The position numbers and the translations under genes are program-made. A stretch of DNA of 62,755 nucleotides, the filler included. It is 8 parts of 8 records of this genome, joined end to end, with 100 filler letters (N's around TTAATTAATTAA, not from the genome) between each part and the next. Parts side by side here need not be neighbours in the genome. Positions count along the whole stretch, not along the records: positions 48,674 to 54,651 come from SRR20825006_1814; 7 more parts are not named here. One strand, 5' to 3'. Shown piece after piece: positions 48,574 to 54,752 of this stretch (its first letter is position 1; every line of letters begins with the position of its first letter). The notes under the pieces were generated by a model. That model saw nothing but the letters and a program-made list of their open reading frames with translations, searched no databases and was not told the DNA's origin.

Positions 48574-48674
48574 NNNNNNNNNNNNNNNNNNNNNNNNNNN
48601 NNNNNNNNNNNNNNNNNTTAATTAATTAANNNNNNNNNNNNNNNNNNNNNNNNNNNNNNNNNNNNNNNNNNNNT

Positions 48675-49634
48675 ATAGATAACCTTACTGCAACTATTGT
48701 ATTAATTACATTGTTAAGAAAACTTGTTTATAACCGAGACGAGCGTCTTTGGTTTGCAGGTATGGTTGTAATTGCTGCCAATGCTGGTGGTGCTTGGTCT
48801 CCTATTGGAGATGTTACAACAACTATGTTATGGATAGCAGATAAAGTTTCTGCTCTTGGTCTTATAGAGTATATCGTTATACCATCTATAATTTGTTTTG
48901 TAGTACCGTTTTTTATCGCTTCACTTCTTCCAGTATTCAAAGGAGATATTTATTTTGATGTTAATGAAGATAAGGAGGCAGAACGTTTATTAAGTAGTAA
49001 GACAATGTTGTTCTTAGGTTTAGGAGCAATTGTTTCTGTGCCTGTGTTTAAAACACTTACACACTTACCACCTTATATGGGAATGATGCTTGCTTTAGGT
49101 GTAGTTTGGTTGGTATCAGAATACATTCATCCGGAAGAAGACTTTACGCAAGAACGTAGAAAACAATATTCTGCGCACAAGGCATTAAGTAGGATTGAGA
49201 TTTCATCTATATTATTCTTCTTAGGAATACTTATGGCTGTAGCTGCTTTAGAGACTTTAGTTTATGGTACTATTGGCGGAGAAGAAGTAGGAACACTAAG
49301 ATATTTAGCAGAAGTACTACAAAGTGCTATACCAAATCAAGATGTTGTAGTAATGATGTTGGGTGTGTTCTCTGCAATTATAGATAACGTACCGTTAGTT
49401 GCAGCTTCAATGGGTATGTATACAGCACCAATGGATGCACAATTGTGGCACTTTATTGCTTACTCTGCAGGAACTGGTGGTAGTATGCTAATTATTGGTT
49501 CTGCTGCAGGTGTTGCAGCAATGGGAATGGAGAAAATTGATTTCATCTGGTACCTTAAGAAAATTGCTTGGTTAGCAGCTGTAGGTTTTGTAGCAGGTGC
49601 AATTGCATTCTTGTTTATTGAAAACTATTTCTAG
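48675..49634 (+). CDS. nhaD: Na+/H+ antiporter NhaD (5' truncated)
   Basis: IDNLTAT, ANAGGAWSPIGDVTT, SAIIDNVPLVAA, GSAAGV. Confidence 0.92.
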   Translation: MDNLTATIVLITLLRKLVYNRDERLWFAGMVVIAANAGGAWSPIGDVTTTMLWIADKVSALGLIEYIVIPSIICFVVPFFIASLLPVFKGDIYFDVNEDKEAERLLSSKTMLFLGLGAIVSVPVFKTLTHLPPYMGMMLALGVVWLVSEYIHPEEDFTQERRKQYSAHKALSRIEISSILFFLGILMAVAALETLVYGTIGGEEVGTLRYLAEVLQSAIPNQDVVVMMLGVFSAIIDNVPLVAASMGMYTAPMDAQLWHFIAYSAGTGGSMLIIGSAAGVAAMGMEKIDFIWYLKKIAWLAAVGFVAGAIAFLFIENYF

Positions 49635-49683
49635 ACAATTTTTAAACCCAATCTACGTTTACTAACAAACTGAATACATAACT

Positions 49684-50370
49684 ATGTCATATACATTTCA
49701 AGATGCAGCACAAGATTTAGAACCTGTTGCAGAAGAAAAAACACTTTCTCTACTAGACTTATTGTTTAGTGGAGGTATGGCAGGAAGTATTATAATAGGC
49801 GTTTTATTTGTCCTCTTATTTGCTGCTGTCTATATATACTTTGAACGTTTATTTGCAATTAAAGCAGCCTCTAAAACAGATAAAAATTTTATGCACCAAA
49901 TACGTGATAACGTTGCCGGTGGTAATATTGAAGCTGCTAAAATTAGATGTGCTCAAGAAAACTCTCCAGTAGCAAGATTAACAGCTAAAGGAATTTCGAG
50001 AATAGGAAGCCCTTTAGAAGATATTAATACAGCTATAGAAAATGCTGGAAGGCTTGAGGTTTACAAATTAGAAAAAAATGTAAGTGTTCTCGCAACTATT
50101 GCAGGAGCTGCACCTATGATTGGATTTTTAGGTACGGTAATAGGTATGGTTTTAGCATTTCACCAATTAGCAACTAGCAGTGGTCAAGCAGAAATGGGTA
50201 ACCTTGCAGAAGGAATTTATACCGCTATGACAACTACAGTAGCTGGTCTTATTGTTGGTATTATAGCATATATTGGATATAACCACTTAGTGGTAAAAAC
50301 AGATAAAGTTGTACACCAGATGGAAGCAACAGCTGTTGATTTCCTTGACCTGCTAAACGAACCTGCTTAA
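49684..50370 (+). CDS. exbB: MotA/TolQ/ExbB proton channel
   Basis: APMIGFLGTV.GM, AMTTTVAGL. Confidence 0.9.
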   Translation: MSYTFQDAAQDLEPVAEEKTLSLLDLLFSGGMAGSIIIGVLFVLLFAAVYIYFERLFAIKAASKTDKNFMHQIRDNVAGGNIEAAKIRCAQENSPVARLTAKGISRIGSPLEDINTAIENAGRLEVYKLEKNVSVLATIAGAAPMIGFLGTVIGMVLAFHQLATSSGQAEMGNLAEGIYTAMTTTVAGLIVGIIAYIGYNHLVVKTDKVVHQMEATAVDFLDLLNEPA

Positions 50371-50371
50371 T

Positions 50372-50770
50372 ATGAATTTACGCGGAAGAAATAAAGTAAG
50401 TCCAGAATTCAGTATGTCGTCTATGACAGATATTGTGTTCTTGCTATTAGTGTTCTTTTTATTAACCAGTCCACAGATAACACCAGAAGCTTTAGATTTA
50501 ATCTTGCCTAAAGCTAAAGGTAAAACTACAAACGTTCAGAATGTATCTGTAAGCATTAATAAGGAACTTCAAATTTATGTAGATAAGGAACGTGTTACTA
50601 CAAGTAACTTAGAACAAACCTTAAAATCTAGATTAAGTGGCGTAGAGGATCCTACAATTATATTAAGAGCAGAAGAAGGTGTGCCTATTGAAAAGGCAGT
50701 TAATGTTATGGATATTGCAAACCGAAACAAATACAAAATTGTTTTGGCTGTTAGACCAAATGAAAATTAG
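50372..50770 (+). CDS. exbD: ExbD/TolR
   Basis: MTDIVFLLLVFF, IILRAE. Confidence 0.92.
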   Translation: MNLRGRNKVSPEFSMSSMTDIVFLLLVFFLLTSPQITPEALDLILPKAKGKTTNVQNVSVSINKELQIYVDKERVTTSNLEQTLKSRLSGVEDPTIILRAEEGVPIEKAVNVMDIANRNKYKIVLAVRPNEN

Positions 50771-50781
50771 TTGAAAGACGT

Positions 50782-51648
50782 ATGAGCTTTATAGAAACAA
50801 AACATGAAAAGAAATCTTTGGCAATTACTGTCATAATTCATGTTGCGCTCATATTACTGTTATTATTTTTCGGGTTTACTTATCTAGATCCGCCACCAGA
50901 AAACGGTATAGCGGTTAATTTTGGAACGAGTAGTGTAGGTCAAGGAGATGTGCAACCTACAGGACCTGTAAAATCTGCCCCTAAAAACACGTCACAACCA
51001 ACACCGCCAGAGCCTCAGCAAAAAACTCCAGAAATTAAGGAAGAAGTTGTAACTCAAGATAACTCAGATGCTCCAGTAATTGATAAAACTGAAGATAAGA
51101 AAGAGGTTAAGAAAGTTGAGAAGCCGGTAGAAAAACCAAAAAAACAAACTCCAGTTGAAAAACCTGTAGAAAAGGTAGAACCAGTTAAGAAACCAGATCC
51201 AAAGCCAGATAAGTCTACTACAGATGCATTAAGTAGTATCTTAAATGGACCTAAGAAAGATGGTACTCAAAATGGAGGAGAAGGTAATGACAATCAAGCT
51301 GGAGATAAAGGCGATCCTAATGGAGACCCTAATGCTAAATCTTATTATGGCAATGGTAAGGGTTTAGATGGTGATGGTAATTATAGGTTAGGTGGTCGAA
51401 AAGCCTTAAATAAGAAAAAATTTGTTCAAGATTGTAATGAGTCTGGTATTGTTGTAGTTAAGATTGAAGTAGATAGAAACGGTAATGTTATAAAAGCAAC
51501 GCCAGGTGTAAAAGGAACTACAAACAGTGCTTCTTGCCTAACAGAGCCTGCTAAACGTGCTGCGCTTGCAACGCGTTTTAATAGCGATAATAAAGCACCT
51601 ACTACTCAGGTAGGAACTATTATTTATGAGTTTAAGCTAAGTGAGTAA
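50782..51648 (+). CDS. TonB/TolA-like energy transducer
   Basis: N-terminal TM, Pro/Lys/Glu-rich linker, C-terminal VVVKIEVDRNGNV domain. Confidence 0.85.
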   Translation: MSFIETKHEKKSLAITVIIHVALILLLLFFGFTYLDPPPENGIAVNFGTSSVGQGDVQPTGPVKSAPKNTSQPTPPEPQQKTPEIKEEVVTQDNSDAPVIDKTEDKKEVKKVEKPVEKPKKQTPVEKPVEKVEPVKKPDPKPDKSTTDALSSILNGPKKDGTQNGGEGNDNQAGDKGDPNGDPNAKSYYGNGKGLDGDGNYRLGGRKALNKKKFVQDCNESGIVVVKIEVDRNGNVIKATPGVKGTTNSASCLTEPAKRAALATRFNSDNKAPTTQVGTIIYEFKLSE

Positions 51649-51740
51649 ATAACTACTGTTTTTTAGTTGATCAAATTTAATTCTTTAATATTTTTCTTTC
51701 AATTTTAAGTGTTTAAAGTGGTTGGTAATTAGTCGCGTTT

Positions 51741-51748
51741 TATCTTTG
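51741..51748 (+). promoter_or_regulatory. Bacteroidota -7 promoter element for the mbnPH operon
   Basis: TATCTTTG 16 nt before GTG 51765. Confidence 0.55.
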
Positions 51749-51764
51749 CAAAAATCACATTTAG

Positions 51765-52151
51765 GTGCGCAATAAAGCATTTGTTTTTATCCTCTTTTTA
51801 TGCTTTGCTATTAAGCCGATGTATTATATGGGTCAGTACTCATATTATCAGCTTAATATAGATTATATTATTGAAACCTATTGTGTAAATAAAGACAAGC
51901 CAGTATTACAATGTAATGGTAAATGTCATCTCTCTAAACAACTTGATTTAGCATCAACAACAGATTCAGAGTCTAATGAAGGTGCCATCAATTTAGTTTC
52001 AGAGTCTTTTTTTCCAGTCTACTTTCAATCCAATGACAATGTAACTTTTAATGATTCTAATTTTTCATTTAAAAGTACTTTTAATCATTATTATTTAAAC
52101 AGATACATCTTCGAAAACAAAAAGAGACTGTTTAGACCTCCAATTTCATAA
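51765..52151 (+). CDS. Small exported Cys-rich protein with C-terminal FRPP; candidate arrest/leader peptide
   Basis: Hydrophobic N-terminus, CVNKDKPVLQCNGKCH, ends RLFRPPIS*. Confidence 0.75.
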   Translation: MRNKAFVFILFLCFAIKPMYYMGQYSYYQLNIDYIIETYCVNKDKPVLQCNGKCHLSKQLDLASTTDSESNEGAINLVSESFFPVYFQSNDNVTFNDSNFSFKSTFNHYYLNRYIFENKKRLFRPPIS

Positions 52152-52227
52152 GTTTTAAAATACAACTGTAATTTACAAGGCTTTGGGCGCTTGCCATTAA
52201 TAGTGCCTTTATTTTAAAACTAAACAC

Positions 52228-53025
52228 ATGAAAAATTTAAAAATAGCATTACTCCTAATGCTAAGTATCTCTATTATATCTTGTTCTGATGACGATGATT
52301 CCTCAGAAAATCTTTCAGGACAAACAGGAAATTTAATTATAAAATTTGATAACGGTTATGGCGATCAAGATTTCATTTTTGGTACAGAATACCAAAAATC
52401 TAATGATGAGTCTTTTAAATTAGAAACGCTAAAATACATAGTAAGTAACATAAGCTTAGAACATGAAATAGGTAATGTTTACGAATACCCATTTAACGAA
52501 AATATTTTTATTGTAGATGAAGCAAATGCAAATGCAGCTGGTGAAATTTGGATTATGTTAGAAGATATTCCTGCAGCAAATTACACAAATGTATCATTTG
52601 GGGTTGGTGTAGATCAAGATCGTTATGCAATGGGTGCAGAAGGGCAAGGTGAATTTTTAGAAACTGCAGATGAAGCTGGTATGCTTTGGTCTTGGGCAAC
52701 AGGATTTAAATTTATAAGAATGGATGGCTCATTTTCTTCAAGTTCTGTTACAAATGATGATTTAAATGTTCATATGGGTAGCGTTGGTACATCTTTAGAT
52801 AACTATAGAGCAGTGTCTTTATATTTTCCTAATACTGTATTGGTAAGAACAGAGACGCAACCAGAAATTCACATAAAGTCTGACATTTCTAAAGTGTTTG
52901 ATGGTTCTACTTCTGTTAATTTAATGGATGGTTATAATCAAGTTCACGTAGATCCAGAAACAACTGCTGTAGTTGCCAATAACATCATGACGATGTTTGA
53001 GGTGCATCACGTTCATAATAATTAA
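52228..53025 (+). CDS. mbnP: MbnP-family copper-binding lipoprotein
   Basis: Lipobox IISC; LKYIVSNI, FGVGVD, MLWSWATGFKF (WxW), VHMG. Confidence 0.82.
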   Translation: MKNLKIALLLMLSISIISCSDDDDSSENLSGQTGNLIIKFDNGYGDQDFIFGTEYQKSNDESFKLETLKYIVSNISLEHEIGNVYEYPFNENIFIVDEANANAAGEIWIMLEDIPAANYTNVSFGVGVDQDRYAMGAEGQGEFLETADEAGMLWSWATGFKFIRMDGSFSSSSVTNDDLNVHMGSVGTSLDNYRAVSLYFPNTVLVRTETQPEIHIKSDISKVFDGSTSVNLMDGYNQVHVDPETTAVVANNIMTMFEVHHVHNN

Positions 53026-53181
53026 TACTGTATTGTTTGTGTAGCTAAATAATTTTTTGATTTAAGCTACTTCACTTTTTAGTAATGGTAATGCTGTGCG
53101 TATTTATTTAAGTACAGCGTTGCCAAATTATAAATTTACTTGAATGTGAAACAAGTTATATGGAACAAAATAGTTTATGTT

Positions 53182-54222
53182 ATGAAGTATTTATGTATGC
53201 TAATTATAGTTCTGCTATTTTCATCTTGTGCTAAAGATGATACTATAGAATATAGTCCTACACCAATAAATTTAGAAATACCATCTAATTTTCCGCCATT
53301 AGTTTATGCTATTGAAAATAATCCTTTAACAGAAGAAGGTTTTCAGTTAGGGAAGTCTTTGTTTTATGAAGGAAAATTGTCGTCAAACAATTCTATTCCG
53401 TGTGCATTTTGTCACGAACAAGCATTTGCATTTACTCATCACGGCCACAATGTTAGTCATGGTGTAGATGGCGGTATTGGAATAAGAAACTCTCAGCCTA
53501 TTCAAAACTTAGCATTTCAATCTGAATTTACCTGGGATGGTGCAGCTACTCATTTAGATTTACAACCTATAATACCTATTACCAGTGAGGTTGAAATGAA
53601 TGAAAGCTTAAGCAATGTTGTTGAAAAACTAAAAGCAGACGCTTATTACAGGTCTGCTTTTGCCTTGGCTTTTGAAGAAGGAGAGATCAATGGAGAAAAT
53701 TTGCTTAAAGCACTATCGCAATTCATGGTGATGATGGTTTCAACCAACTCTAAGTATGATAGGATGATACGACAAGAAGGTAACGATAACTTTTCAGTTT
53801 TAGAAAATGATGGCCTGGTAACGTTCCAACAAAAATGCACTTCTTGTCACGCTACAGATTTATTTACAGACCAATCATACAGAAATAATGGGCTTTCGGT
53901 AAATCCACAAGTAGATGATAAAGGCAGGTATAACGTTTTTCAAAACCCAGATGATCTGTATAAGTTTAAAGTTCCTAGTTTAAGAAATGTGGAGCATTCT
54001 TTTCCTTATATGCACGACGGTCGTTTTGAAACTTTAGAAGCTGTTGTAAATTTTTATGATAATGGCCTTACAGATAACGGCAATGTAGATCCTTTGTTAG
54101 TTTCTGAAAATGGCAGTTTGGGAATACCACTTACAGATTACGAAAAGCAAAGTTTAGTAGCTTTTTTAAAAACACTTACAGATAATGAATTTTTACAAAA
54201 TGAAAGATTTTCAGATTTCTAA
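53182..54222 (+). CDS. mbnH: MbnH-like di-heme cytochrome c peroxidase/MauG family lipoprotein
   Basis: CAFCH and CTSCH, LGKSLFYE, WDG, FKVPSLRNV..PYMHDGRF; directly follows mbnP. Confidence 0.85.
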   Translation: MKYLCMLIIVLLFSSCAKDDTIEYSPTPINLEIPSNFPPLVYAIENNPLTEEGFQLGKSLFYEGKLSSNNSIPCAFCHEQAFAFTHHGHNVSHGVDGGIGIRNSQPIQNLAFQSEFTWDGAATHLDLQPIIPITSEVEMNESLSNVVEKLKADAYYRSAFALAFEEGEINGENLLKALSQFMVMMVSTNSKYDRMIRQEGNDNFSVLENDGLVTFQQKCTSCHATDLFTDQSYRNNGLSVNPQVDDKGRYNVFQNPDDLYKFKVPSLRNVEHSFPYMHDGRFETLEAVVNFYDNGLTDNGNVDPLLVSENGSLGIPLTDYEKQSLVAFLKTLTDNEFLQNERFSDF

Positions 54223-54651
54223 AATATCAATACTACTTTTAGTTTTTACTCTAAGTATTGTAACTCAACTCAGTGCTAAAGAATTATGTAAAGGCAGAAA
54301 AACGACTATTCCGAAATTTGGATTAACACTACTAGAAGAAGACTGCGATTTATGTGGGTGTACCACTAGTAGTGGTAGTTCTGCATTTGGAGATTTAAGT
54401 ATGTCTAATTTTATTGGTGTGAGATACATTTATCAGCAATACGAATCTCGCAATGGTATATTTGAAAACTCGCCAACTAGTGACGAGCATTTTAATACGT
54501 ATCAAATTTGGGGTAGGGTGCCAATTAGTAAAAATATATTTTTAAATGCTGTGATACCGTATCAATATTTAAGACGAAATTTTGATGATAGAAGCGAGCA
54601 CTTAAATGGTTTAGGAGATGTGAATATTACAGGATTTTACCAATTTAAATT
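54200..54651 (+). CDS. Putative outer-membrane beta-barrel/transporter with CDLCGC motif (3' truncated)
   Basis: Signal peptide, CDLCGC, GLGDV; overlaps mbnH stop. Confidence 0.65.
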
Positions 54652-54752
54652 NNNNNNNNNNNNNNNNNNNNNNNNNNNNNNNNNNNNNNNNNNNNTTAAT
54701 TAATTAANNNNNNNNNNNNNNNNNNNNNNNNNNNNNNNNNNNNNNNNNNNNG

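Follow-up and report, generated by a model that had tools for sequence, protein, structure and literature searches.

A small Bacteroidota ORF family with three cysteines and a Pro-Pro end, a candidate cis-acting leader of mbnPH and other copper-type genes

Background

What is the role of a 128-aa open reading frame (ORF) that combines a hydrophobic N-terminus, a cysteine motif and a di-proline just before its stop codon, and that stands directly ahead of an mbnP-mbnH pair? The original prediction took it for a metal-sensing ribosome-arrest leader of Flavobacteriaceae, stalling at a conserved RPP motif in analogy to CruR and CutF. To our knowledge, nascent-chain copper sensing has been established for two proteobacterial proteins only. 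In the literature that we searched, which mostly did not extend to subscription journals, we found no paper on the leader family and no experimental study of it, in agreement with the earlier statement that it had not been characterised in this phylum.

The window analysed here (62,755 nucleotides, filler included) is a string of contigs differing in GC content, and the leader lies on the contig at 48674-54651 (SRR20825006_1814). Promoter, hydrophobic N-terminus, cysteine motif, terminal LFRPPIS*, mbnP, mbnH and a CDLCGC gene are all present where they had been placed, on the plus strand.

The leader and its promoter

A -7 box of the Bacteroidota type, TATCTTTG (51741..51748), is located 16 nt 5' of the leader start; the consensus is TANNTTTG (PMC6847099). 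Its position is conserved in 70 of the 80 loci formed by the window and 79 relatives, where TAnnTTTG occurs 115-220 nt 5' of the first Cys codon, against a background of 10.8% in random windows and of 3/79 in the windows before the next gene. Membership of the leader in an upstream exbB-exbD-tonB-like operon was rejected, because the leader has its own promoter and no tonB/exbD match was found in up to 6 kb upstream of the 79 loci. Contigs of four marine RNA runs contain both leader and mbnP sequence, with three crossing the gap; neither strand nor transcript can be read from them.

The ORF (51765..52151) begins with a non-AUG codon, GTG, immediately after an in-frame TAG. Over the 80 loci the leader starts are CTG (42), TTG (30), ATG (4) and GTG (1), with three uncalled, while mbnP used as a control starts with ATG in 45 of 45 callable cases; Flavobacteriaceae leaders initiate mostly at CTG or TTG. 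Residues 1-30 (51765..51854) comprise a basic N-region, a hydrophobic core (residues 5-16) and a helix according to the hydropathy profile and AlphaFold2, which models a single helix over residues 2-30 (pLDDT about 88-91). This N-terminus may be either a signal peptide or a signal anchor. The model as a whole has pLDDT 75.9 and pTM 0.39, with pLDDT 56-65 in the cysteine region, and the leader has neither a Foldseek match nor a sequence match in the PDB. The N-terminal domain is strongly conserved, with a mean column identity of 78% (alignment A2).

The cysteine motif, C40-x-N-x7-C50-x-G-x-C54 (51882..51926), contains three cysteines that are invariant among the 127 sequences of alignment A3, and the residue after the last one, here His55, varies among homologs. 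We infer that this C-x9-C-x3-C arrangement is likely to be a metal site.

Neither Pfam nor NCBIfam yields a match above cut-off for the ORF. It belongs to a family of 6,388 clusters at 50% identity, for which there is no Pfam model; an atlas search returned unnamed Bacteroidota clusters only, with DUF6660 as a lead at 0.89. The family occurs in about one quarter to one third of the sampled Bacteroidota genomes (47/201, and 27/81 in a second sample); it is Bacteroidota-wide rather than restricted to Flavobacteriaceae. DUF2946, the family of CruR, scores above cut-off in 1 of the 81 genomes. Haem-copper oxidase (PF00115) is present in 74 of these 81, so that its co-occurrence with the leader family, which is found in 27 of the 74 and in none of the other seven, says little about a link between the two. 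The family is missing from the nearest genome (G001), a probable match for other contigs in the window; in 101 genomes of its phylum the leader family was not found, and DUF2946 was above cut-off in 18. A homolog search directed at Flavobacterium johnsoniae listed Flavobacterium proteins, none bearing that species name among the best 120 of 359.

The Pro-Pro end

The leader ends in LFRPPIS*, with Pro125-Pro126 (52137..52142) two codons before the stop as a putative stall site. A di-proline lies within the last 14 residues of 120/120 close homologs among those listed, near the end of 135 of 139 further representatives carrying the cysteine motif, and in all 60 phylum-wide matches of a profile built on the N-terminal 46 residues only. 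Among 549 flanking ORFs of at least 150 aa, none has Pro-Pro in its last 14 residues.

RPP itself, which had been proposed as the conserved stall motif, has to be given up, since Arg precedes Pro-Pro in 22 of the 120 close homologs listed and in 8 of the 60 phylum-wide matches. The preceding residue is variable (F/L-x-P-P, where x is K, R, H, P or Q); F-H-P-P is the commonest ending and F-K-P-P the local one, while Ala occupies this position in 1/79 close loci and Gly in 0/79, both being absent from the 60 phylum-wide matches. Taken literally, this is the refuting outcome named in the original prediction, a lack of RPP conservation among homologs; the di-proline and its spacing, however, are invariant, so that the stall motif would be better read as x-P-P, mostly F-H-P-P. 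The linker is poorly conserved but retains some conserved aromatic positions. Across it, the distance from C-x9-C-x3-C to Pro-Pro is 62-72 residues (median 66, n=58), and 2-10 residues follow up to the stop. Against a pause at Pro-Pro speak the variable residue before it, an ending other than RAPP, RGPP, HAPP or QAPP, and the fact that EF-P normally relieves di-prolines.

Downstream genes

The next gene begins 76 nt after the leader stop. It encodes an mbnP-family lipoprotein (52228..53025; ATG 52228, WSW at 52687) that matches PF20243 above cut-off (E 3e-44) and TIGR04052 with 50.7 bits, below the cut-off of 140, and has no sequence match in the PDB. The following gene (53140..54222), whose start is likely ATG 53182 or 53197, encodes an mbnH-like di-haem MauG/CcP protein with CAFCH at 53401 and CTSCH at 53836 (PF03150, E 2e-50); its best NCBIfam match is TIGR04039 (215.5 bits, below the cut-off of 362.85) and its best PDB match is 6e1c, 'Di-heme enzyme' (E 1e-41). 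A PF20243 protein with WxW thus adjoins a di-haem MauG-like protein, as in an MbnP/MbnH pair, with both partners below their equivalog cut-offs. The third gene, of which the 5' part is present (54185..54651, CDLCGC at 54344) up to an assembly gap of Ns at 54652, has homologs behind the leader in 46/79 loci. Its product has no Pfam match, and PF13557 matches two of four distant CDxC-type proteins (E 1e-5 and 8e-3); the gene is there as noted, and its product may be an outer-membrane protein.

At the 79 close loci, the next gene encodes an MbnP-like protein (47), a TonB-dependent transporter (18) or a Met-rich PDGHAP protein (13), with one contig end; in all six transporter loci scanned, PepSY_TM is the gene after. 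Phylum-wide, the 59 first genes include 14 MbnP, 8 OprC-motif transporters, 12 lipoproteins followed by an OprC-motif transporter (9 of them YtkA-like), 12 transporters that lack the OprC motif, and 2 AraC regulators. The leader thus stands first in copper-homeostasis operons, and the genes behind it vary but encode exported, mostly copper-type proteins, which agrees with the copper, TonB and MbnP neighbours anticipated but not with a tie to mbnPH in particular. Because 12/59 first genes are non-OprC transporters and 2 are AraC regulators, the copper link may not extend to every member of the family. The gaps between leader and next gene measure 60-376 nt (median 118).

A predicted stem between leader end and next start

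In the window, TATTTTAAAAC (52210..52220) is a perfect 11-bp complement of GTTTTAAAATA (52152-52162). The predicted 5' arm (52143..52162) includes the last codons, the stop codon and GTTTTAAAATA; the 3' arm occupies -18 to -8 relative to the mbnP start, including -12/-13. In Flavobacterium, the efficiency of initiation depends on A-12/A-13 and on structure (PMC6847099). The ensemble holds 9.8 expected pairs. Predicted pairing strength is -6.3 kcal/mol for own versus -3.7 for cross combinations; pairing in the top 5% is found for 33/77 leaders versus 4/124 unrelated gaps, and at least 5 expected pairs for 46/72 close leaders and for 17/46 of the phylum-wide ones, compared with 2/113 control gaps. 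A strong stem is absent from 26/72 close and 29/46 phylum-wide leaders. The pairing centres on the stretch 9-23 nt beyond the first Pro codon and on -18..-6 relative to the next start; whatever the gap length, the 5' arm keeps pace with Pro-Pro and the 3' arm with the start codon. When ribosome-covered bases are removed, the openness of -16..-1 rises from 0.42 to 0.63-0.66 (55 loci); in the window alone, a footprint to +15 lifts it from 0.37 to 0.44, and one to +18 to 0.67.

Single-sequence and consensus folding support the stem weakly or not at all. The stem region of the window is of ordinary stability (z -0.39, single-sequence folding). For 10 short-gap loci, consensus folding returned no structure, and for 8 loci its covariation term was unfavourable; the pair count is modest (75% paired versus 70% shuffled), and its covariation was matched by 12/500 shuffles. 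By prediction, then, a stem as in CutF would conceal the initiation site of the next gene, close enough for a stalled ribosome to open it, with weak covariation.

Relation to known systems

The leader may be regarded as an analogue of CruR and CutF, with which leader architecture and operon position agree as foreseen, and not as their homologue: it has no PF11162 match, hhalign against DUF2946 proteins gave a probability of 0.3% (a few of the DUF2946 rows extracted were wrong-frame), and PF11162 is absent from the 25 families listed, out of 49, for 127 family members. The published rule for CutF-like proteins (PMC9973294) asks for fewer than 150 aa, Pro-Pro among the final 15 residues and a same-strand gene that follows at no more than 1,000 nt. 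The leader fits these points, with 128 aa, Pro-Pro at 125-126 and its next gene 76 nt away on the same strand. The rule also asks for a cleavable Sec signal peptide by SignalP, and here the leader shows the basic-hydrophobic N-terminus and the single modelled helix described above. In the same source, a bioinformatic count places 19% of CutF-like proteins in Bacteroidota.

With CutF of Rhodobacter capsulatus (cutF-cutO; PMC9973294, 10.1101/2025.02.05.636593) the family shares an export-type N-terminus, CxxxC and prolines at the C-terminus, whether or not EF-P relieves them, as well as a stem-loop, here a predicted one, that hides the initiation site of the next gene and, putatively, periplasmic sensing. 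However, it is unrelated in sequence to DUF2946, has a third Cys 10 residues upstream, and its stem covers an A-rich initiation region devoid of a Shine-Dalgarno sequence; because the downstream genes resemble uptake rather than detoxification, control is likely to have the opposite sign. CruR (Bp2923 of Bordetella pertussis, PF11162), whose arrest has been shown in vitro (PMC12992588), likewise stands first in operons for TonB transporters with PepSY_TM, OprC-type, Sco and MbnPH-like proteins, a neighbour set that matches ours (PMC9426467), has a conserved Cys-to-Pro spacing and is likely expressed at low copper. It differs in CXXC and RAPP 45 residues apart (mostly 45-52 in our DUF2946 control), cytoplasmic sensing and Rho termination, where the leader family has C-x9-C-x3-C and x-P-P (F-H/K/R-P-P) at a distance of 62-72 residues, together with a stem predicted to act on translation. 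The RQH-family arrest peptides (RAPP, RGPP, HAPP, QAPP; PMC10987492, PMC12992588) also combine a localization signal with a C-terminal di-proline, and R, H and Q are common near the prolines in both groups; there, however, R/H/Q stand two residues before Pro-Pro with A/G between, whereas in the leader family they are adjacent and preceded by an aromatic residue, and the [RHQ]-[AG]-P-P motif is lacking.

Bacteroidota also have DUF6660 (PF20365), a small exported Cys-motif ORF ending in I-W-Q-P-P, whose last ~24 residues align with the leader family (hhalign probability 29.5%, E 6e-4) and which shows the same stop-to-start stem in 11/18 cases. Its Cys motif is different, the spacing is 39-44 residues, and the next genes resemble, by their N-termini, CusA/CzcA-type efflux proteins or TonB receptors.

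Proposed mechanism and alternatives

We consider it fairly probable that the ORF is a cis-acting leader in which a Pro-Pro pause opens the stem under copper shortage and copper-driven periplasmic folding ends the pause; stalling, copper binding and the direction of control are what we infer, the last from gene content only. Guided by its N-terminus, the growing chain would enter the Sec channel; on reaching the invariant Pro-Pro, the ribosome would pause and thereby open the stem that is predicted otherwise to cover the mbnP initiation region. With the ribosome there, the 62-72 residue spacing would put the cysteines on the periplasmic side; an arrest peptide has been found to sense periplasmic folding at about 70 residues (10.1101/2021.02.06.430026). 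Scarce copper would mean a long pause and translation of the MbnPH or OprC-type uptake genes, while bound copper would make the chain fold and pull, ending the pause, so that the stem closes again and expression drops. By limiting ribosome traffic, the weak start codon would allow the stem to close.

The same stalling leader could instead respond to another metal, to the periplasmic disulfide/redox state or to export capacity, or act with the sign reversed as in CutF, which we regard as unlikely. For CutF, relief of stalling through disulfides formed by its cysteines has been proposed (10.1101/2025.02.05.636593), CutF-like proteins are described as not all Cu-specific or isofunctional, and the best NCBIfam matches of the 12 non-OprC transporters are mostly of the siderophore-receptor class. 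On the other hand, 34/59 phylum-wide operons have MbnP first or an OprC-type CxxxM transporter first or second, OprC being a Cu-repressed copper importer (PMC8610252), and a disulfide-only switch would leave one of the three invariant cysteines unpaired.

It seems quite improbable that the leader controls transcription as CruR does, through Rho (PMC9426467), with the pause blocking Rho or a terminator while RNA stability or processing would be the role of the stem. Such control would suit the gap lengths given above and the fact that many gaps contain inner hairpins, and hairpins occur between the downstream genes too (from the first to the second of them, the gap pairs in 21/64 cases, mainly as a hairpin 8-14 nt after the stop); but the stem arms keep to Pro-Pro and the next start regardless of gap length, and no intrinsic terminator was called in the leader-mbnP gap of the window. 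It seems very improbable, finally, that the product works in trans, as a small copper chaperone or store anchored in the membrane, with a structural Pro-Pro and a stem for plain translational coupling on termination. The strongly conserved, predicted helical N-terminal domain speaks for it, and terminating ribosomes would open a stop-codon stem as well, yet it would lead one to expect neither the fixed spacing across a diverged linker, the weak starts and the first position before unrelated genes, nor the same Pro-Pro end and stem in the unrelated DUF6660.

Beyond the cis-acting copper leader preferred here, a wider generalization is possible, though tentative: sequence-independent Pro-Pro leaders might exist throughout Bacteroidota, composed of an aromatic-x-Pro-Pro arrest module, a stem on an SD-less site and interchangeable Cys sensors, with rulers of about 66 residues in the leader family and about 41 in DUF6660. 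The leader family would then be a trans-membrane copper-starvation switch, CutF-like in its mechanics but of opposite sign and throttled by CUG/UUG starts, through which the phylum mainly controls MbnPH and OprC-type uptake at the post-transcriptional level.

Implications

RAPP/RGPP leaders of Cu-related genes were missing from Bacteroidota in a large survey (PMC12992588), and the leader family would fill this gap. It would also supply a new arrest motif, show translation gating in bacteria without Shine-Dalgarno pairing, and mark copper-uptake genes, including those for the unnamed CDxCGC and Met-rich PDGHAP proteins. It would further make testable what stand-alone MbnPH pairs do in vivo.

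Leader ORF and operon

The leader ORF is located at 51765-52151 (+) on a contig of 33.8% GC (48674-54651); it encodes 128 aa from a GTG start preceded by an in-frame stop, and the promoter box TATCTTTG lies 16 nt upstream. No family match was found for it with Pfam and NCBIfam profiles. The feature is real: a check of the sequence found the promoter, Cys40, Cys50 and Cys54, the C-terminal end LFRPPIS and the three following genes where the original prediction had placed them. These genes are mbnP, starting 76 nt past the leader (PF20243, E 3e-44; WSW motif), a gene for a di-haem MauG-like protein (PF03150; closest in NCBIfam to MbnH, though below cut-off, and in the PDB to 6e1c, a methanotroph MbnH), and the CDLCGC gene, whose 3' part is lost to an assembly gap. 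The GC content of the eight concatenated contigs ranges from 34% to 62%, and the window therefore mixes organisms. The chemistry of MbnP and MbnH is covered in a review (PMC11951088).

An exbB-exbD-tonB-like operon (49684-51648; PF01618, PF02472) lies immediately upstream of the leader, a neighbourhood that is not conserved in the 79 related loci. In contigs of the marine RNA runs X1 and X3, window positions 51652 and 54478 are joined through 104 letters of other sequence, as if a relative lacked the leader-mbnP-mbnH block and retained a diverged stretch resembling the CDLCGC gene. In contigs of runs X1, X2 and X3, mbnP is short of 2 letters (window 52434), so that its frame would shift in that strain; their leader shows four differences, three synonymous and one V>I.

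Conservation of the Pro-Pro end

A protein search returned 190 homologs, of which the named ones are all "hypothetical" Flavobacteriaceae proteins, and a profile search (E up to 0.001) extended the family to 6,388 clusters at 50% identity. Only C40, N42, C50, C54, P125 and P126 are invariant in an alignment of 127 members. Among the matches listed, all 120 homologs carry Pro-Pro inside the last 14 residues, preceded by K (56), R (22), P (21), H (10), Q (7) or another residue (4); the RPP triplet originally proposed as the conserved motif does not hold up, R being found in only 22 of these 120. Since a profile restricted to the N-terminus avoids selecting for Pro-Pro, 46 N-terminal residues were used against 201 genomes from the phylum of Ulvibacter litoralis (G002), giving 60 matches in 47 genomes. 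Pro-Pro stands 2-10 residues ahead of the stop in 60/60 of them and is so placed in 0/549 flanking ORFs. The preceding residue is here mostly H (34/60, counting 59 matches and one from a separate search), with F ahead of it in 41/60, and the last Cys is 62-72 residues from Pro-Pro (median 66; 58 measurable phylum-wide sequences). As the residue ahead varies and Pro-Pro is constant, the general form is an aromatic-x-Pro-Pro end, of which RPP is a local variant. A frameshift disrupts one member, L143, and a stop upstream of its FHPP another, L163. Paired paralogs occur 2.5-4.4 kb apart in loci L094, L100, L127 and L137, and both copies in L094 and in L137 stand first in a copper-type unit of their own.

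Leader starts were placed by inference between the promoter and the basic N-region. Under a fixed rule, CTG, TTG or GTG opens 73 of the 77 close leaders that could be called, against ATG in 45/45 callable mbnP controls; phylum-wide, the start is non-ATG in 32/49. Because of these starts the signal region is absent from many database entries, and signal-peptide filters could miss those entries.

Downstream genes

The frame is closed in 79 of the 80 close loci, the remaining one running off its contig. Among the 79, the next gene encodes an MbnP-like protein 47 times, a TonB-dependent transporter 18 times and a Met-rich PDGHAP protein 13 times (one a fragment), and in 1 it is missing; 41 of 78 first genes were checked by Pfam. 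For 59 phylum-wide matches it is MbnP in 14, a transporter with an OprC-type CxxxM in 8, a lipoprotein (9 YtkA-like) followed by such a transporter in 12, and another transporter in 12 (4 then PepSY_TM, 1 then Sco); the remainder are CDxC-type (4), Met-rich (2), others (5, 2 of them AraC) and none called (2). OprC likeness was scored on the CxxxM half only of the CxxxM-HxM site (PMC8610252). The downstream genes differ between loci, most being of a copper type; in L126 and L127 the leader precedes genes for AraC-family regulators, not exported proteins. Conversely, a family member lies directly upstream in 13 of 30 mbnP loci (three loci without an mbnP call). The neighbour list matches the one known for cruR (PMC9426467). 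The promoter box is conserved in 70/80 close and 33/59 distant loci and is rare ahead of the next gene, which means that transcription of the operon passes through the leader.

The Met-rich (5-8%) exported PDGHAP proteins encoded after the leader, weakly matching PF13557 (L008, L011, L014, L019, L032, L037, L041, L058, L063, L066, L070, L076, L089, L135), are candidate TonB-independent copper channels.

A predicted RNA stem

In the window, GTTTTAAAATA just past the leader stop is complementary to -18..-8 of the mbnP start, in a region that alone is not unusually stable (z -0.39). Across loci, the stop region pairs at -6.3 kcal/mol with its own next initiation region versus -3.7 with those of other loci, and own pairing is in the top 5% for 33/77 leaders versus 4/124 unrelated same-strand gaps. 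In ensemble folding, which covered gaps of 45-250 nt and left out 8 distant loci with no clear start or a long tail, at least 5 expected pairs were found in 46/72 close leaders, 17/46 distant leaders and 2/113 controls, and also in 21/64 gaps between the first and second downstream genes, where pairing peaks 8-14 nt past the stop, not on it. Kin loci are not independent and the p-values of these tests therefore overstate; alignment-based covariation is weak. The 5' arm lies 9-23 nt past the first Pro codon in short and long tails alike. When only the bases left free by a ribosome on Pro-Pro covering to +15 are folded, the openness of -16..-1 rises from 0.42 to 0.63 (55 loci, gaps up to 150 nt); the window itself requires cover to +18. 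Bacteroidota lack SD sequences and initiate through structure and A-3, A-6, A-12 and A-13 (PMC6847099), bases that the predicted stem would cover.

Proposed mechanism and relation to CruR and CutF

From the observed anatomy, spacing and context of the leader, and from the predicted stem, we propose that the nascent leader would be exported co-translationally and the ribosome would pause at Pro-Pro, aided by the upstream aromatic residues; the paused ribosome would open the stem, and copper-bound cysteines folding outside the membrane would release the pause. In a published arrest peptide, folding in the periplasm is sensed at about 70 residues, with a minimum of about 50 needed to bridge ribosome and SecY (10.1101/2021.02.06.430026), and by this analogy the 62-72 spacing fits periplasmic sensing. 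Stalling would be expected under copper shortage, because it would switch on uptake-looking genes; we thus expect CutF mechanics (preprint 10.1101/2025.02.05.636593) with the sign of CruR.

A cis-acting copper leader comprising pause, stem opening and copper release is, taken as a whole, the reading we consider probable. That the leader stalls in response to another signal, or with the other sign, seems rather unlikely to us; Rho-type control is improbable, and action of the leader as a chaperone in trans hardly probable.

The analogy to CruR and CutF stands as regards leader-like architecture, copper-type operons and the presumed way of working; it does not extend to DUF2946, membership of which was rejected for lack of a profile match (Pfam, the families listed for 127 members, and profile-profile comparison), nor to RPP. 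The spacing in CruR is 45 residues versus 62-72, and the family lacks the arrest motif [RHQ][AG]PP (PMC10987492). Copper-related RAPP/RGPP leaders are reportedly missing from Bacteroidota (PMC12992588). The family occurs in 27/81 Bacteroidota genomes and 0/101 genomes from the phylum of genome G001, and DUF2946 above cut-off in 1/81 and 18/101, respectively; the two look complementary in distribution. A rule-based survey counted 5,334 "CutF-like" proteins, 19% from Bacteroidota (PMC9973294 and preprint); the leader ORF largely agrees with its rule, and the survey's total may already include the family. Our literature search found no published study of the family.

Other leader-like families

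A third leader type may exist at locus L169, where the small Cys-rich ORF ahead of mbnP is of another kind and ends FIWTPPKIG. DUF6660 (PF20365) is probably a second Bacteroidota leader family. Its ORFs (L174-L193) end I-W-Q-P-P, 39-44 residues past a Cys cluster, and in 11/18 callable loci the stop region pairs with the next start in the same stem, three misses having a wrong start call; the genes that follow resemble those for CusA/CzcA or TonB receptors. What DUF6660 has in common with the leader family is limited to about 24 C-terminal residues and this stem, which suggests that the C-terminal end and the stem form a reusable module.
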